A DNA stretch of 26,759 bases from positions 1 through 26,759 of the IMG/VR virus record IMGVR_UViG_2531839665_000020. One strand, given 5' to 3'. The stretch is from a virus. Lineage: Duplodnaviria; Heunggongvirae; Uroviricota; Caudoviricetes. Shown piece by piece: positions 1 to 16,274 of this stretch (its first letter is position 1; every line of letters starts with the position of its first letter). Position numbers and translations under genes: made by a program. The notes under the pieces are model-generated. The model was not told where the DNA came from and did no database searches. It saw only the letters and a list, made by a program, of their open reading frames with translations.

Positions 1-381
1 ATGCAGAAAAATGTGACTCCCGGCAGGCGAAAAGGCTGCCCTAATTATCCTCCCGAATTTAAACAGCAGCTCGTTGCTGCCTCCTGTGAACCCGGGATAT
101 CCATCTCAAAACTTGCTCTTGAAAATGGCATTAACGCCAATCTGTTGTTCAAATGGCGACAACAATGGCGCGAGGGAAAGCTGCTATTACCTTCTTCAGA
201 GAGCCCCCAGCTACTTCCTGTGACTCTCGATGCAGCTGCCGAACAGCCAGAATCGCTCGCAGAGGACCCGGAAACCCTCAGTATCAGCTGTGAGGTAACG
301 TTCCGGCACGGGACGCTCCGCTTCAATGGCAATGTCAGCGAAAAGCTCCTGACTCTGCTGATACAGGAACTGAAGCGATGA
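1..381 (+). CDS. IS66-family accessory protein orfA (TnpA-like)
   Basis: 126-aa ORF starting at base 1; N-terminal helix-turn-helix-like region (KQQLVAASCEPGISISKLALENGINANLLFKWRQQW) typical of IS66 orfA; stop overlaps the orfB start (ATGA at 378-381). Confidence 0.85.
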   Translation: MQKNVTPGRRKGCPNYPPEFKQQLVAASCEPGISISKLALENGINANLLFKWRQQWREGKLLLPSSESPQLLPVTLDAAAEQPESLAEDPETLSISCEVTFRHGTLRFNGNVSEKLLTLLIQELKR

Positions 382-725
382 TCCCGTTACCTTCCGGGAC
401 CAAAATTTGGCTGGTTGCCGGTATCACCGATATGAGAAATGGCTTCAACGGCCTGGCTGCGAAAGTACAGACGGCGCTGAAAGACGATCCCATGTCCGGC
501 CATGTTTTCATTTTCCGGGGCCGCAGCGGCAGTCAGGTTAAACTGCTGTGGTCCACCGGTGACGGGCTGTGCCTCCTGACCAAACGGCTGGAGCGTGGGC
601 GCTTCGCCTGGCCGTCAGCCCGTGATGGCAAAGTGTTCCTTACGCAGGCGCAGCTGGCGATGCTGCTGGAAGGTATCGACTGGCGACAGCCTAAGCGGCT
701 GCTGACCTCCCTGACCATGCTGTAA
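378..725 (+). CDS. IS66-family orfB (TnpB)
   Basis: 115-aa ORF with IS66 TnpB signature ([22 protein letters not shown] ... FIFRGRSG); translationally coupled to orfA. Confidence 0.9.
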
Positions 726-774
726 ATCTCTTTATCCTGGTTGTCACAGAATAAGCCCGGTAAAATACGGGCTT

Positions 775-2313
775 ATGAACGACATCTCTTCTGACGACAT
801 CTTCCTGCTGAAACAGCGCCTGGCCGAACAGGAAGCGCTGATCCACGCCCTGCAGGAAAAGCTGAGCAACCGGGAGCGCGAAATAGACCATCTGCAGGCG
901 CAGCTGGATAAACTCCGCCGGATGAACTTCGGCAGTCGTTCCGAAAAAGTCTCCCGCCGTATCGCACAAATGGAAGCCGATCTGAACCGGCTTCAGAAAG
1001 AGAGCGATACGCTGACTGGTAGGGTGTATGACCCGGCAGTACAGCGTCCGTTGCGTCAGACCCGCACCCGTAAGCCGTTCCCTGAATCACTACCCCGTGA
1101 CGAAAAGCGACTGTTGCCTGCGGCGCCGTGCTGCCCGAACTGCGGCGGTTCACTGAGCTATCTGGGCGAGGATACCGCCGAACAGCTGGAGTTGATGCGT
1201 AGCGCCTTCCGGGTTATCCGGACGGTACGGGAAAAACATGCCTGTACTCAGTGCGATGCCATCGTGCAGGCACCTGCACCTTCGCGGCCCATCGAGCGGG
1301 GTATCGCCGGACCGGGGCTGCTGGCCCGCGTGCTGACCTCGAAGTATGCAGAGCACACCCCGCTGTATCGCCAGTCAGAAATATACGGCCGGCAAGGTGT
1401 GGAGCTGAGGCGTTCACTGCTGTCGGGCTGGGTGGATGCATGCTGCCGGCTGCTGTCTCCGCTGGAAGAGGCGCTTCATGGCTATGTCATGACTGACGGC
1501 AAACTCCATGCCGATGATACCCCGGTCCAGGTACTGCTGCCGGGTAATAAGAAGACGAAGACCGGGCGGTTGTGGGCGTATGTTCGTGATGACCGCAATG
1601 CAGGGTCAGCGTTGGCACCTGCAGTGTGGTTCGCTTACAGCCCGGACAGAAAAGGCATCCATCCGCAGACTCATCTTGCCTGCTTCAGCGGTGTGCTGCA
1701 AGCGGATGCGTACGCCGGGTTCAACGAGCTGTATCGCAATGGTGGGATAACGGAAGCTGCCTGCTGGGCTCATGCCCGCCGAAAGATCCACGATGTGCAC
1801 GTCCGCATCCCGTCAGCACTGACGGAAGAAGCCCTGGAGCAGATCGGTCAGTTGTACGCCATAGAGGCGGATATAAGGGGAATGCCGGCAGAGCAGCGGC
1901 TTGCTGAACGTCAGCGAAAAACGAAACCGTTGTTGAAATCCCTGGAAAGCTGGTTGCGTGAAAAGATGAAGACCCTGTCGCGACACTCAGAGTTGGCGAA
2001 GGCGTTCGCGTACGCACTTAACCAGTGGCCGGCACTGACGTACTATGCGAACGATGGCTGGGTGGAAATCGACAACAACATCGCTGAAAATGCCCTGCGG
2101 GCGGTCAGTCTGGGTCGTAAAAACTTCCTGTTCTTCGGCTCTGATCATGGTGGTGAGCGGGGAGCGCTACTGTACAGCCTGATCGGGACGTGCAAACTGA
2201 ATGACGTGGATCCAGAAAGCTACCTTCGCCATGTGCTTGGCGTCATAGCAGACTGGCCGGTCAACCGGGTCAGCGAACTGCTTCCGTGGCGCATAGCACT
2301 GCCAGCTGAATAA
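775..2313 (+). CDS. IS66-family transposase (orfC)
   Basis: 512-aa ORF with N-terminal leucine-rich coiled coil, CxxC...CxxC zinc-finger region and DDE-type core, following orfA/orfB as in IS66. Confidence 0.9.
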
Positions 2314-2396: not shown

Positions 2397-2747
2397 TTAC
2401 AACATTGTCAGGGCGTTAAGGCGGGATGTTTTTGGCTGACGCCAGTCCAGCTTATCGAGGAGCATTGCCAGTTGCGAGCGGGTAATGGATACCTTACCGT
2501 CACGCACCGCAGGCCAGATAAACTGGCCTTCCTCCAGGCGTTTGGTGAACAGGCACAGACCATCAGCATCAGCCCAAAGAATTTTAACGGTGTCCCCCCG
2601 TCGGCCACGGAAGATAAACAGGTGACCGGAGAAGGGATTATCATTCAGCACATGTTGTACCTGTTCTCCCAGTCCGTTGAAGGATTTACACATATCGGTA
2701 ACGCCGGCAACGAGCCAGATACGGGTACCTGATGGGAGTGAAATCAT
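2397..2747 (-). CDS. IS66-family orfB (TnpB), second copy
   Basis: 116 aa, MISLPSGTRIWLVAGVTDMCKSFNGL..., clearly paralogous to the 378..725 product but diverged. Confidence 0.85.
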   Translation of the reverse strand: MISLPSGTRIWLVAGVTDMCKSFNGLGEQVQHVLNDNPFSGHLFIFRGRRGDTVKILWADADGLCLFTKRLEEGQFIWPAVRDGKVSITRSQLAMLLDKLDWRQPKTSRLNALTML

Positions 2748-3169
2748 CTTCCCCTCCCGCTCAGTTCGCGGATTAACATCGTGAGCAGCTCTGGCGATGG
2801 ATTTTCCAGCGTCATGTTACCGTGACGGAATTCCACCTTGCAGGAACTGGCACTGACTCTGGTCTGAGTGGAAGTGGATAAAGACGGCGCAATGGCCGCC
2901 ACAGGTTCTTTCTGCTCATCCGGCGTTATTTCTACAGGTAATAATTCAACGCCAGTGTCAGAAGAGGTTGTTACCGGAAGACGCCGCGAAACATGCCCTT
3001 CGTTCTGCCAGAGCCTGAGCCATTTGAAAATAACATTATCATTGACGCCATTTTCTCGTGCAATCTGTGTAACACAAGCTCCAGGTTGTGATGCCAGTTC
3101 AACCATACGAAGTTTGAATTCATTCGAATACTTTTTACGAGGTTCTTTTCGCCAGTCCTGTAATTCCAT
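2744..3169 (-). CDS. IS66-family orfA, second copy
   Basis: 141 aa with the same HTH-like motif (EFKLRMVELASQPGACVTQIARENGVNDNVIFKWLRLW); ATGA-type overlap with downstream orfB. Confidence 0.8.
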   Translation of the reverse strand: MELQDWRKEPRKKYSNEFKLRMVELASQPGACVTQIARENGVNDNVIFKWLRLWQNEGHVSRRLPVTTSSDTGVELLPVEITPDEQKEPVAAIAPSLSTSTQTRVSASSCKVEFRHGNMTLENPSPELLTMLIRELSGRGR

Positions 3170-3296: not shown

Positions 3297-3431
3297 TTAC
3301 GATTCTTTAGGCAGATAATAATTTTGATCAGCCCATTCAACTGCCGTCATTGGTACAACCCTGACCAGAGGCTGCAGCGCAACCGAAACGGCAGCCATCA
3401 TATTATTCAGTTGTTGCTCTGATATATTCAT
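3297..3431 (-). pseudogene. Terminase large subunit (gpA-like), N-terminal ~44 codons only, truncated by IS66 insertion
   Basis: Translation MNISEQQLNN...PMTAVEWADQNYYLPKES matches the lambda gpA N-terminus pattern (MNIS...TAVEWADANYYLPKES); the reading frame runs into the IS66 terminus at 3300 and stops at 3297; start overlaps the 3' end of the Nu1-like gene. Confidence 0.7.
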
Positions 3432-3912
3432 CGAGTAAATCCGGTAATTTATCCCCTGCCCGCGCACACTGATTTGCCCCCTTAGCAATAAGGGTTTTCA
3501 GATGGTCAAGATGGCGCGGTGTTAAATCAGGAAACTGTCGCTGCATGGATAAAGGGATGGAATCAAGCGTACTGGATAACGCCATTGCCAGCTTACTGAG
3601 GGCAAAAATACAGAACCCGGTGTCAATAAGTTTTCCTTTTGACACCTCATTTTTTAACTGCTGTGTAACAGCCTGTTCTGCTGTCAGTTCCCATCTGGCA
3701 ATAAGCAATTTCTCCTCATAGTCGTCTTCGCTATCGCCATCAGGCACATCGTTTTTACTTCTCCTCAGATACGATATGTAAAAATCGCGCCAGGCATCCA
3801 GATCCAGTTGCCCTCGCTTATTCGATATCGGGGCACCCGGCAATTTCTGCAATCTGCGAAGCTGGCGATCGGTCAGACTTAAATGCCTGGCAACTTCAGT
3901 CTGCGTAGCCAC
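3403..3912 (-). CDS. Terminase small subunit, Nu1-like
   Basis: 169 aa; C-terminal region (TGFCIFALSKLAMALSSTLDSIPLSMQRQFPDLTPRHLDHLK...LLDEYI) resembles Nu1/NohA; GTG start preceded by GAGGTGAGGA; cos site immediately upstream. Confidence 0.8.
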   Translation of the reverse strand: MATQTEVARHLSLTDRQLRRLQKLPGAPISNKRGQLDLDAWRDFYISYLRRSKNDVPDGDSEDDYEEKLLIARWELTAEQAVTQQLKNEVSKGKLIDTGFCIFALSKLAMALSSTLDSIPLSMQRQFPDLTPRHLDHLKTLIAKGANQCARAGDKLPDLLDEYIRATTE

Positions 3913-4613: not shown

Positions 4614-4928
4614 TTAGCATTTTTTTGACCGCGCGTTTCCGGACGTATTCTGTTCTCCTGTCCCTTTATATCGTCGGAATACCCGCCGCTCTTCAAATCC
4701 CATTCCCAACTCAGAATGTAGTCTGTTGACCGCTTGTTTTATTTCGGTCAGGTTCACCGGTGAAACCGGAGTCCGGCGCGCCTTACGCAAACACTCTGCT
4801 CGTTTCTGTGCCGCCACTTTTCTTTTCTGGTCATCACTTAGCTGTACCATCACTTTTGCCCATCGTTCAGCTGCTCTCCGGTACAGTCCTTTTTTCTCCA
4901 GACATTCTGCCACGTGATCATGTAGCAT
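4614..4928 (-). CDS. PerC-family transcriptional regulator (Pch-like)
   Basis: 104 aa; motif LEKKGLYRRAAERWAKVM matches the PerC/Pch signature; ATG preceded by GGAGG; long A-tract-rich region upstream. Confidence 0.7.
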   Translation of the reverse strand: MLHDHVAECLEKKGLYRRAAERWAKVMVQLSDDQKRKVAAQKRAECLRKARRTPVSPVNLTEIKQAVNRLHSELGMGFEERRVFRRYKGTGEQNTSGNARSKKC

Positions 4929-10606: not shown

Positions 10607-10949
10607 CGAATTTCTCCCGTGTACAGGAACAGAGTTAAAAAGCCGGAACCGGAATCAAATCACAGGATGACCATCTGCCAGTGGCTGGTCGTAAAAAAAA
10701 GGCCGCGCCATGCGCAGCCGGAAATAAAGGGATAACGATGATAGTTTGAGAAAAACAGAAATAACACTTTTGTGGCAAAGCATGGTGCCGGGTGCCTCCC
10801 GGTGAATTCAGTACCAGCACCTGAATCCGCGATTATCCCATATACCTAGTTGCTGATTGCCCCTCCGCACAGGGGGATTCACCATGCAGTAGTATTTTTA
10901 ATAAACAGTAAACAAAAAAATCAAGCATTATGCAGGCTGTTTCTTTTTA

Positions 10950-14765: not shown

Positions 14766-14921
14766 TTACTCCTCAGGTTCGTAAGCTGTGAAGACAGCGA
14801 CCTCCGTCTGGCCGGTTCGGATTCGTACCTCGCAGAGGTCTTTCCTCGTTACCAGTGCCGTCACTATGACGGTTAAACAGATGACGATCAGGGCGATTAA
14901 CATCGCCTTTTGCTGCTTCAT
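14766..14921 (-). CDS. hok: Hok/Gef-family type I toxin (51 aa)
   Basis: MKQQKAMLIALIVICLTVIVTALVTRKDLCEVRIRTGQTEVAVFTAYEPEE matches the Hok family; ATG preceded by AAGGAGAAG; an in-frame upstream ATG at 14978 gives a 70-codon mok-like extension. Confidence 0.85.
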   Translation of the reverse strand: MKQQKAMLIALIVICLTVIVTALVTRKDLCEVRIRTGQTEVAVFTAYEPEE

Positions 14922-14924
14922 AGC

Positions 14925-15010
14925 CTGCTTCTCCTTGACCTTTCGGTCCGTAAGAGGCAATCTATATGTGACGAGCATATAGGGGCCTCACTTCGATTTA
15001 TAGTCGGGTG
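14925..15010 (+). ncRNA. Predicted Sok-like antisense RNA region (approximate)
   Basis: Placed by analogy with plasmid R1 hok/sok: leader elements GCTTGAGGCTATCTGCCTC and GATTGCCTCTTACGG resemble the R1 hok leader as I recall it; exact RNA ends not determinable by eye. Confidence 0.3.
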
Positions 15011-15112
15011 GGGCTTTTATCTATCTGCCGTTGGTGTTCATGCCCGAGGCAGATAGCCTCAAGCACCCGCAGCAATTCTACTTAACTCTGCCGTTACAGC
15101 AAGCCGTTTTCG

Positions 15113-15138
15113 TCCGATATGGGAATTCCCATATCGGA
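15113..15138. repeat. Perfect 26-bp palindrome TCCGATATGGGAATTCCCATATCGGA
   Basis: Read directly from sequence; lies between the hok leader and the terminator of the ModA-like gene. Confidence 0.9.
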
Positions 15139-15221
15139 ATGAATTCAGTTCACCTGGCGAGGCTTAGCGTACAATTTTTTCCGTTTTGTGAGCTGCCCCT
15201 ACATGCCGCTGGCGCGGCATC

Positions 15222-15253
15222 CGGAAAAAGAATCCACGTCCTGAAGGACGTGG
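15222..15253 (-). terminator. Rho-independent terminator of the ModA-like gene
   Basis: - strand hairpin CCACGTCC-TTCA-GGACGTGG 7 bp after the stop codon, followed by ATTCTTTTT. Confidence 0.65.
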
Positions 15254-15259
15254 AGGATG

Positions 15260-16018
15260 TCAAGTGCCTTTCCTGGTCCAGCCATATTTTTTGAATGCAG
15301 GCGCCGCTTCATCGGTTTGTAGCCATTCTGCAAATCGACGGGTTTCATCATTTGCATCCTGACGTACTGTAATGTTCATATCACGCCATATCACGTAGTC
15401 TGGCGCTATTTCCACGACATCACCAATTTCTGGATTACTGGCTGCCCAGTCAGCCCAGGTTATCCAGACATCTGCTTCAGGCTGATTCTCAAGAGCCTTA
15501 CGTGCAGTTCCGCTATTGGGCGCATATAAAATAATATTTTTTCGGATTGCGGCGACAGTTTCTATATTCCCTTTACGTCCGGCAATATCTTCCCAGACGC
15601 CAGTGCCTGATGTATTACTGGTACCACCACCATCATTAACAATTACGCCAATCCCGGGTCTGGTCAGGTCGTCAATACTCCGGATATTTTTAGGATTACC
15701 TTTCTTTACCAGTAAAATACTTTTTCGCAGATAAAGAGGCTGAATATCTTTTTCACTGAAGCTGTCTTTATGGTCCCGAATGATAGCCAGAGCAGATTGT
15801 TCTGATGCGCCAAACAAGATATCTGCATTTTTTTTGGCATCTTCATTCCATTTGTTCTGTGGGCCGTAATGAACGTTCACTATAATACCTGTTTTTTCGG
15901 CATAAAGTTTGGCTGCATCAAGCAAGGCTGTATGCGGGCCACCAGGACCATACAGATTGATATCAGCATAAGCAGCAGAAGACAGGAATATTAAAAAACC
16001 TGCCATTATGTTCCTCAT
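15260..16018 (-). CDS. Orphan periplasmic substrate-binding protein, ModA/TupA-like
   Basis: 252 aa; signal peptide (MAGFLIFLSSAAYA); ADILFGASEQSA and C-terminal AAPAFKKYGWTRK resemble E. coli ModA (ADLFISADQKW; AAEIFKRYGFTIK); no permease or ATPase gene adjacent. Confidence 0.8.
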   Translation of the reverse strand: MRNIMAGFLIFLSSAAYADINLYGPGGPHTALLDAAKLYAEKTGIIVNVHYGPQNKWNEDAKKNADILFGASEQSALAIIRDHKDSFSEKDIQPLYLRKSILLVKKGNPKNIRSIDDLTRPGIGVIVNDGGGTSNTSGTGVWEDIAGRKGNIETVAAIRKNIILYAPNSGTARKALENQPEADVWITWADWAASNPEIGDVVEIAPDYVIWRDMNITVRQDANDETRRFAEWLQTDEAAPAFKKYGWTRKGT

Positions 16019-16182
16019 AAAAAACTCCTTTTATTGGTTATCATGAAATAAAGTTATAAACACTACAAATAATATATATTACATCCAGATAAACTTATCC
16101 GACTTTACCTCGTGCATAGCTTGTTATTTAAAGTTAACAAAATAAGGAAAATTATACGCATATTGAAGAGTATAAACCTTAC

Positions 16183-16210
16183 ATGTTGATTACATTTTTG
16201 TAATCAACAT
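16183..16210. promoter_or_regulatory. 12-bp perfect inverted repeat ATGTTGATTACA-tttt-TGTAATCAACAT, candidate operator upstream of the ModA-like gene
   Basis: Read directly; about 165 bp upstream of the ModA-like start in an AT-rich intergenic region. Confidence 0.4.
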
Positions 16211-16274
16211 CCTGTTTGGAATAGCCAGCCTTTAATGGATAACTATTTCTGACAATGCAATGAGTATAATCAAG

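Follow-up and report, generated by a model that had tools for sequence, protein, structure and literature searches.

The stretch of DNA considered here, IMG/VR virus record IMGVR_UViG_2531839665_000020 at its full length of 26,759 nucleotides (the window), belongs to a degraded lambdoid prophage, as judged from the RefSeq annotation of the identical locus and from Pfam and Rfam scans. A sequence-only reading of the window had pointed to a self-contained unit encoding an orphan, secreted ModA/TupA-like binding protein in the early/nin region, with AT-rich DNA upstream, a 12-bp inverted repeat (16183-16210) and a terminator of its own, and had regarded it as unusual phage cargo. The open reading frame (ORF) and the sequence features around it are found where that reading had placed them. 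The ORF, at 15260..16018 on the minus strand, encodes 252 amino acids and is paa (adfO), an already described virulence-associated gene of pathogenic Escherichia coli, whose product is an AcfC/PEB3-family periplasmic binding protein. The early/nin location also holds, since paa lies between the replication gene P and DUF1627 on one side and the nin-like genes DUF968-RusA-Q on the other, in the orientation of the early-right operon.

Concerning the identity of the gene, positions 15000-16500 (1,501 bp) are 100% identical at the DNA level to E. coli O103:H2 12009 (NC_013353.1) and to many other genomes of Shiga toxin-producing E. coli (STEC), and the identical locus is labelled paa, 'AcfC family adhesin Paa' (WP_001815900.1), in RefSeq. 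Identity is 99.0-99.1% to the PPompW and Shiga toxin 2a (Stx2a) prophage records, which carry the label 'porcine attaching-effacing associated protein Paa/adherence factor'. Among 5,426 complete E. coli genomes, 577 carry the full stretch. The name used in O157:H7 is adfO (z2053), and the gene is part of O-island 57 there (PMC8565820, PMC10562709, PMC2749873). Paa/AdfO of porcine enteropathogenic E. coli (EPEC), enterohaemorrhagic E. coli O157:H7 (z2053) and enterotoxigenic E. coli (ETEC) is the same gene, with the same neighbours (hokD, which is ckf, and the fimbrial pseudogene) and the same prophage position. paa/adfO is a standard virulence marker of STEC, EPEC and ETEC and has been in the literature since 1999-2003. 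The view of an unusual phage cargo is thus not sustained.

The Pfam family SBP_bac_11 matches residues 20-247 of Paa (1.6e-34). In phmmer searches against the PDB, PEB3 of Campylobacter jejuni (4.1e-82, Paa residues 11-248, 54% identity) and AcfC of Vibrio cholerae (1.5e-81, Paa residues 16-248, 52% identity) are matched over the whole mature chain. Since Paa is 52-54% identical to proteins of known crystal structure, its fold is settled. The ModA/TupA-like assignment survives as far as the type II periplasmic-binding-protein fold and the family SBP_bac_11, which also holds ModA, are concerned. It was dropped on the NCBIfam cut-offs, as Paa reaches 18.6 bits with the equivalog model modA (TIGR01256), whose cut-off is 62.5, and 12-18 bits with other ModA models, whose cut-offs are 253-470. 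Sulfate-binding protein models (Sbp/CysP) were rejected as well (22.7 vs 288, 21.6 vs 155.5 and 19.0 vs 308 bits), and the similarity to them is local, covering about 50 residues near the anion loop. ModA, Sbp and CysP, which bind oxyanions for ABC importers, share with Paa the Pfam family (ModA) or the superfamily fold and a Ser/Thr-Gly-rich anion-binding loop, but Paa is far below their family cut-offs and has no permease or ATPase genes. In an alignment of Paa with 67 relatives (68 sequences), 54 Paa positions are at least 95% conserved and match Paa, including N135-T136-S137-G138-T139-G140, W142-E143-D144, R148, R159, S169-G170 and D183-x-WITW. The binding pocket expected of such a protein is represented among them by the N135-G140 loop, which we take to correspond to the PEB3 ligand site T138/S139 of Min et al. 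in 2009.

The protein is indeed marked for secretion. Residues 1-18 (MRNIMAGFLIFLSSAAYA, encoded at 15965..16018 on the minus strand) form a Sec signal peptide for signal peptidase I (SPase I), whose n-region is basic and whose core is hydrophobic (Kyte-Doolittle mean over 9 residues up to 2.8), with an A-x-A motif and cleavage before D19 of the following DINLYG. In the PDB entries of PEB3 the mature chain starts with the residue that aligns with D19. Paa contains no Cys and therefore is not a lipoprotein; its sequence has no lipobox, beta-barrel, autotransporter or fimbrial features. AcfC was found to be periplasmic by fractionation (PMC5976639). From these features Paa is most likely a Sec-exported, predicted soluble periplasmic class-II binding protein.

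A cassette common to prophages and plasmids

The gene resides on a homology block of about 1.03 kb (15197..16222, minus strand), the paa cassette, which is 86-89% identical at the nucleotide level between the prophage and alleles on IncF and IncI plasmids. With window:15000-16800 as the query, the plasmid matches span query positions 198-1223. The block contains a G+C-rich hairpin, the terminator, paa and about 205 bp of upstream DNA, and it ends just past the palindrome. E. coli, E. albertii, E. marmotae and Shigella have paralogous alleles on plasmids of the IncF and IncI types, and the DNA flanking the cassette is unrelated among these replicons. Between prophage and plasmid alleles, the ratio of non-synonymous to synonymous substitutions (dN/dS) of paa is about 0.07 (0.06-0.12) at a synonymous difference (pS) of 0.13-0.33, i.e. 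the gene is under strong purifying selection. It is interrupted by IS481 in E. albertii plasmid pEA50_1 (L006), where the ORF ends at codon 103, and has a premature stop at codon 209 in a plasmid of E. coli XJ6.1 (L007); all other examined alleles are intact.

At the downstream end an intrinsic terminator (TCCACGTCCT-TC-AGGACGTGGA then TTCTTTTTCC; 15223..15254, minus strand) starts 6 nt past the paa stop codon. Its stem (15254-15233) has 9 pairs, 6 of them G-C, in the terminator scan and is recovered as a perfect 10-bp inverted repeat in the inverted-repeat search. The hairpin is discernible in the plasmid alleles L002 and L003, and its 5' arm is deleted in L004. The downstream edge of the cassette is formed by a second G+C-rich hairpin, read from the sequence at 15203..15220 (ATGCCGC-TGGC-GCGGCAT), which has no T-run and which every plasmid allele keeps as far as the homology extends. 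The distance from the end hairpins to the two breaks in homology is 12 bp and about 6 bp. Integron attC sites or IS200/IS605-like subterminal hairpins were considered at the cassette ends and rejected, as the two hairpins are unrelated and have no core-site motifs.

The G+C content upstream of paa falls to 26.5% at 16000-16199, as compared to about 50-57% in the flanking prophage DNA. Together with the terminator and the insertion between conserved phage genes, this deviant base composition is a trait of 'moron' genes. The likeness to lambdoid morons (bor, lom, hok/sok of 933W) extends to a single accessory gene, co-oriented with the phage genes around it and dispensable for the phage. Unlike these, the paa cassette occurs in non-phage replicons too, namely IncF and IncI plasmids. 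We consider paa a lysogenic-conversion gene on a cassette of about 1.03 kb in a defective lambdoid prophage, and we put the probability of our best explanation as a whole, of which this is part, at roughly 0.8.

The region upstream of paa

The upstream edge of the cassette is a perfect inverted repeat (ATGTTGATTACA-AAAA-TGTAATCAACAT on the minus strand; 16183..16210), 164 nt upstream of the paa ATG. Its two arms (16183-16194 and 16199-16210) comprise 12 nt each and are 100% complementary across the 4-nt spacer, and none of 100 dinucleotide-preserving shuffles contained a match, even at up to 3 mismatches. The repeat is perfect in the prophage allele only: over 11 alleles the 12-bp arms have 12, 10, 8, 7, 10, 8, 7, 6, 9, 6 and 7 Watson-Crick pairs, and in the left arm the six outer positions vary with no compensatory change. 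Invariant is a core at 16186..16204 (minus strand; ATTACAAAAATGTAATCAA), made up of CAA and the inner inverted repeat of 6+6 bp. These are 19 invariant columns in a row among 10 alleles and the longest invariant non-coding run of the cassette, in an alignment where 52% of the upstream columns and 40% of the third-codon positions vary. The inner ATTACA-AAAA-TGTAAT is unchanged in 10 of 11 alleles, and an exact 16-mer can be recovered from the prophage allele (L001) and from 9 of the 10 fetched plasmid alleles. Judging from these alleles, the full 12-bp symmetry is not required.

Twenty-six nt downstream of the palindrome lies a perfect TATAAT hexamer, a candidate -10 element (16151..16156, minus strand), which is invariant in 11 of 11 Escherichia alleles and has no recognisable -35. 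If it were used as a promoter, the palindrome would sit at about -66 to -39. A Shine-Dalgarno sequence AAGGAG (16025..16030, minus strand) is found 6 nt ahead of the paa ATG, and AATAAAAGGA is unchanged across the 11 Escherichia alleles. No promoter with a good -35 was detected within the conserved cassette; the consensus scan yielded 4 sites as compared to 4.2 expected by chance, with one minus-strand site, outside the cassette. The proposed self-contained transcription unit is accordingly supported by its own terminator but not by the promoter scan.

Several roles of the palindrome were tried and discarded. It is not the cI/Cro operator of the prophage, whose immunity region has repeats of the CCTAAG/CTTAGG type instead. 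An RNA or DNA hairpin needing the 12-bp stem was rejected for want of compensatory changes; RNAalifold returns a covariation term of -0.55 and one compensatory pair in 43. In the 5' region of paa no known RNA family was found (sub-threshold chance matches only), and conserved RNA structure was not detected. The span of the fimbrial pseudogene in RefSeq runs through the palindrome, which would make it a coding 3' end; over its final 38 nt, however, the intact gene has a different sequence, and fimbrial homology ends at about 16220, whereas the palindrome moves with paa on plasmids. Because the fimbrial gene is cut at the cassette junction, the extension in RefSeq is fortuitous.

In the RNAalifold model, a conserved CTCTT/CTCCT element (anti-Shine-Dalgarno-like; 16165-16182) pairs with the paa ribosome-binding site (16019-16030), corresponding to columns 33-50 and 210-223 of alignment A6, and its T/C changes retain G-U or G-C pairs. 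Covariation here is weak, and the pairing would be meaningful only if transcription began upstream of TATAAT.

Could the palindrome be the operator of a dedicated repressor or activator of paa? It is a perfect, non-random repeat, no other non-coding part of the cassette is conserved as well as its inner 19 bp, and its position about 26 nt upstream of the invariant TATAAT would allow a bound regulator to influence transcription. We nevertheless hold this to be doubtful, though a possibility to be reckoned with. The outer left arm varies uncompensated, leaving 6-10 of 12 pairs in plasmid alleles. No regulator gene was found linked to the cassette in the plasmid contexts compared. A second copy of the palindrome, for which the sequence-only reading had suggested a search of the genome, is absent from the window, and half-sites are there at chance level (4 vs 2.7 expected). 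The repeat is unlike those of the prophage cI/Cro region, and after its A-tract the right arm resembles the core of an integration host factor (IHF) site (AATCAAnnnnTAA), by our own reading with one mismatch to the consensus WATCAANNNNTTR. The 19-mer also occurs in unrelated phage contigs, in other contexts and without paa. We favour, on the alignment evidence, another reading of the inner core: it probably binds a protein or is associated with a promoter, as an element of the cassette that is of host origin and not a phage operator.

In IMG/VR the 19-mer is present in 58 contigs, 43 of them with this prophage allele of paa and the others with the 19-mer in unrelated contexts without paa. Among these approximately 15 unrelated viral contigs with ATTACAAAAATGTAATCAA, several have similar flanks, e.g. 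CAAACT-ATTACAAAAATGTAATCAAT; the contigs without paa include L102, L105, L111, L112, L114, L117, L118, L125, L127, L129 and L137. They may derive from a gene that is conserved in another group of phages. None of the paa homologues from the E. albertii chromosome, from Salmonella plasmid DNA or from Edwardsiella has the core element upstream, and it therefore belongs to one recent lineage of the cassette.

The surrounding prophage

The gene order of the window is IS66-family elements, Nu1 fragment, PerC/Pch homologue, Rz, lysozyme, holin, nanS-p-type esterase, the small RNA (sRNA) STnc100, Q, RusA, DUF968, hokD/sok, paa, fimbrial pseudogene, DUF1627, P, DnaT-like protein, YdaT, cro, cI, dicB/DicF, exo, xis and int. 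The type I toxin gene hokD (ckf; 14766-14921, minus strand) was identified from the ORF list and the RefSeq annotation of the identical locus, and the sok region (14919-15068, minus strand) from a full-length Rfam match (103.9 bits). hokD/sok is the invariable neighbour downstream of paa in prophages. adfO has been reported always together with ckf, a hok-type killer gene, on O-island 57 (PMC8565820); the hokD next to paa represents this adfO-ckf pairing. The order hokD-paa-fimbrial pseudogene-DUF1627 is also found in an isolate from dog faeces with a smaller genome of 4.75 Mb.

Homology to the hok/sok region of Stx phages stops at 15110 and homology to the plasmid paa cassettes begins at 15197. 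Between the hok/sok module and the cassette lies a perfect 26-bp palindrome with no spacer (TCCGATATGGGAA/TTCCCATATCGGA; 15113-15138); the segment of about 90 bp that contains it (15111-15196) is common neither to Stx phages nor to plasmid paa cassettes.

On the other side of paa, outside the cassette, a frameshifted fimbrial-subunit pseudogene (16220-16712, minus strand) has its end cut at the cassette junction. By comparison with intact chaperone-usher fimbrial genes it is without the last 38 nt, and the similarity to these genes begins at a window position of at least 16220. The pseudogene is about 84% identical to the subunit gene of a PapB-regulated chaperone-usher operon on other E. coli chromosomes and plasmids; here the fragment is located within the prophage early region. 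An 'empty site', i.e. the prophage flanks joined without paa and the fimbrial fragment, was found in no complete E. coli genome.

Two IS66-family elements abut each other in opposite orientation at the left end, the one at 1-2313 (plus strand) with orfA, orfB and transposase, the other at 2397-3169 (minus strand) with orfB and orfA. In these insertions, at the far left end, lies the only difference between the prophage of the window and that of O103:H2 12009. Beside them the gene for the terminase small subunit (Nu1; 3403-3912) is truncated, and the prophage is therefore defective. A gene for a PerC-family (Pch-like) transcriptional activator (4614-4928, minus strand; PF06069, 3.8e-44) is situated near the lysis/terminase end. 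Pch proteins are activators of ler, the regulator of LEE (locus of enterocyte effacement). The sRNA STnc100 (10747-10913, minus strand; 102 bits) lies downstream of Q, and the antisense sRNA DicF (22012-22063, plus strand; 77 bits) adjoins dicB; both are standard in Qin-like and lambdoid prophages.

Relatives of Paa and its possible role

No ATP-binding cassette (ABC) permease or ATPase is annotated at the virtually identical RefSeq locus, and neither is modB or modC. To place this absence, which the sequence-only reading had rightly noted, a scan of one genome per bacterial species provided 80 loci with relatives of Paa. They include Edwardsiella, Helicobacter, Campylobacter and Vibrio as well as a large environmental clade (Rhodobacteraceae, Aureimonas, Paracoccus and others) with 43-48% identity to Paa; most family members are found in free-living marine and soil bacteria. 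An ABC-ATPase-like ORF is present within 4.5 kb at 3 of the 80 loci and adjacent at none. The transporter-less state is therefore the norm of the family and not a peculiarity of the phage copy. Recurrent neighbours are instead extracytoplasmic function (ECF) sigma factors (31 loci), LysR regulators (16), a sulfite-oxidase-type molybdoenzyme (16) with cytochrome c (7), a putative anti-sigma factor (15) and a SLAC1/TehA anion channel (12).

Two settings of the homologue are seen in Rhodobacteraceae, Aureimonas and bacteria related to them (loci L084-L090, e.g. L087 2736-5256, L029-L032, L046, L050, L070 and L078-L083). In the one, co-directional clusters comprise ECF sigma factor, putative anti-sigma factor, binding protein, a small ORF, a SorA-like molybdoenzyme and cytochrome c; in the other, the homologue is next to a SLAC1/TehA anion channel and a LysR regulator.

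The recurrent ECF sigma factors and sulfite enzymes fit published work on SMc02156 of Sinorhizobium meliloti, whose best homologues are Paa, AcfC and PEB3. Compounds that generate sulfite induce SMc02156 via RpoE1 and RpoE4, sigma factors of the ECF26 group, and the protein co-purifies with the sulfite dehydrogenase SorT (PMC3511301). The neighbourhoods thus suggest a role of the family in a periplasmic sulfite response. SMc02156 and the environmental clade (ECF26, SorA/SorT neighbours) are like Paa in family, periplasmic location and lack of an ABC transporter; SMc02156 is under ECF-sigma control as part of the sulfite response (PMC3511301), whereas E. coli paa is without such neighbours.

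Among the pathogen homologues, AcfC (VC_0841; 4JB7) is 52% identical to Paa and, like it, horizontally acquired and without a transporter partner. It is a periplasmic colonisation factor encoded on a pathogenicity island and acts in mucin chemotaxis rather than adhesion. PEB3 (Cj0289c; 2HXW, 3FIR, 3FJ7, 3FJG, 3FJM) has the same signal-peptide cleavage position and N-T-S-G-T-G loop as Paa, 54% identity over the whole mature protein and likewise no adjacent ABC transporter. PEB3 differs in K135, which is T in Paa, and in its sequon D-F-N-V-S, where Rangarajan in 2007 reportedly placed the N-glycosylation; the aligned residues of Paa are D-S-F-S-E, hence no sequon.

Taken together, a course of events can be proposed for the lysogen. 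Since the gene has its own terminator and about 200 bp of AT-rich upstream DNA that move with it, paa would plausibly be expressed independently of phage genes. Paa would then be exported through the Sec pathway and act as a soluble class-II binding protein in the periplasm. In this family small anions are bound in the inter-domain cleft, via the conserved N-T-S-G-T-G loop and without a dedicated ABC transporter. The role of Paa would most likely be periplasmic capture or sensing of an anionic ligand, with sensing or buffering as its presumed output. By analogy with AcfC and the rhizobial homologue induced by sulfite, this ligand may be a sulfur oxyanion or a sulfated-glycan group; by analogy with PEB3 it may be a phosphorylated acid. 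Sulfated glycans are bound by AcfC, which mucin chemotaxis requires and cell adhesion does not (PMC5976639), and the ligands of PEB3 are phosphoenolpyruvate (PEP) and 3-phosphoglycerate (3-PG) (PMC8835900). Reviews describe reduced adherence and attaching-effacing activity of paa/adfO mutants (PMC8565820, PMC2749873). By way of a putative signalling step, the capture or sensing of an anion would aid colonisation and adherence indirectly.

Some points weigh against this proposal. The known family ligands disagree, being 3-PG and PEP for PEB3 and sulfated glycans for AcfC. The antibody and mutant data of Batisson in 2003 are said to have been taken as a direct surface role. The argument for a sulfur oxyanion would be drawn from synteny and one rhizobial regulon. 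As to expression, the sole strong element is a -10 hexamer without -35, and conservation of the core, which is confined to one recent cassette lineage, could partly reflect shared ancestry.

The name of the protein stands for a different view, in which Paa is a true surface adhesin that binds host enterocytes directly and contributes to early attaching-effacing adhesion. In its favour are the RefSeq label 'AcfC family adhesin Paa' and the lower adherence of mutants, Paa being described in reviews as a contributor to attaching-effacing lesions (PMC8565820, PMC2749873, PMC10562709). Yet the sequence has a Sec signal peptide only and no surface-anchoring feature, it encodes a complete soluble binding-protein fold with 52-54% identity to the periplasmic PEB3 and AcfC, AcfC confers no adhesion to Caco-2 or HT-29MTX cells (PMC5976639), and most relatives live in free-living marine or soil bacteria without a host to adhere to. 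We consider a direct adhesin unlikely. Docking of Paa onto a chromosomal ABC permease (e.g. CysUWA for sulfate/thiosulfate, ModBC for molybdate or PstCAB for phosphate), to which it would add a new substrate specificity, is less probable again. The SBP_bac_11 fold and the weak similarity to Sbp/CysP and ModA near the anion-binding loop would agree with it. Moreover, PEB3 mutants reportedly lose the growth benefit of 3-phosphoglycerate, a result ascribed to Min et al. in 2009. Against this stand the lack of conserved ABC genes adjacent to any of the 80 relatives, the scores of the Sbp, CysP and ModA models, all far under their cut-offs, and the movement of the cassette among prophages and plasmids as a single gene.

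The sequence-only reading had also considered interference with incoming phages, i.e. protection of the lysogen by a periplasmic decoy or superinfection exclusion. Its position among prophage accessory genes beside a toxin-antitoxin module, and nothing else, speaks for it. Paa matches no family of the PADLOC defence models at E <= 0.01, the function of the PHROG family that it matches is not known, near-identical or related alleles are found on plasmids and chromosomes in many non-phage contexts, and the published phenotypes concern host colonisation. This idea is given up as extremely improbable.

Capture or sensing of an anion by a soluble periplasmic protein thus remains our preferred account of Paa. 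A bolder version can be formulated: Paa would not be an adhesin but the enteric-pathogen branch of widely distributed, transporter-independent sulfur-oxyanion binders (for sulfite, sulfate or sulfated glycans), feeding signalling or chemotaxis for the colonisation of sulfated-mucin niches, and the 19-bp core would be the site of a host regulator as yet not connected with paa. That all of this should hold at once is speculative and rather improbable, if less so than a direct adhesin.

As a find the gene is of low significance, since paa/adfO is routinely typed and both its location on O-island 57 and its pairing with ckf/hok are already published. What this work adds are the limits of the cassette, the way in which the palindrome is conserved, and, for the whole family, the lack of a transporter together with the link to the sulfite response. 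The residual value lies in the mechanism, the name 'adhesin' having been kept for twenty years. The sequence, the solved homologues and the family neighbourhoods all point to a soluble, periplasmic, transporter-less anion-binding protein. The 1.03-kb cassette with its invariant upstream core offers concrete targets for studies on promoter and regulator, and the sulfite-response link leads to a short list of candidate ligands. Should the bolder version be true, the binding proteins of the free-living relatives would belong to an ECF-sigma-controlled sulfite response.

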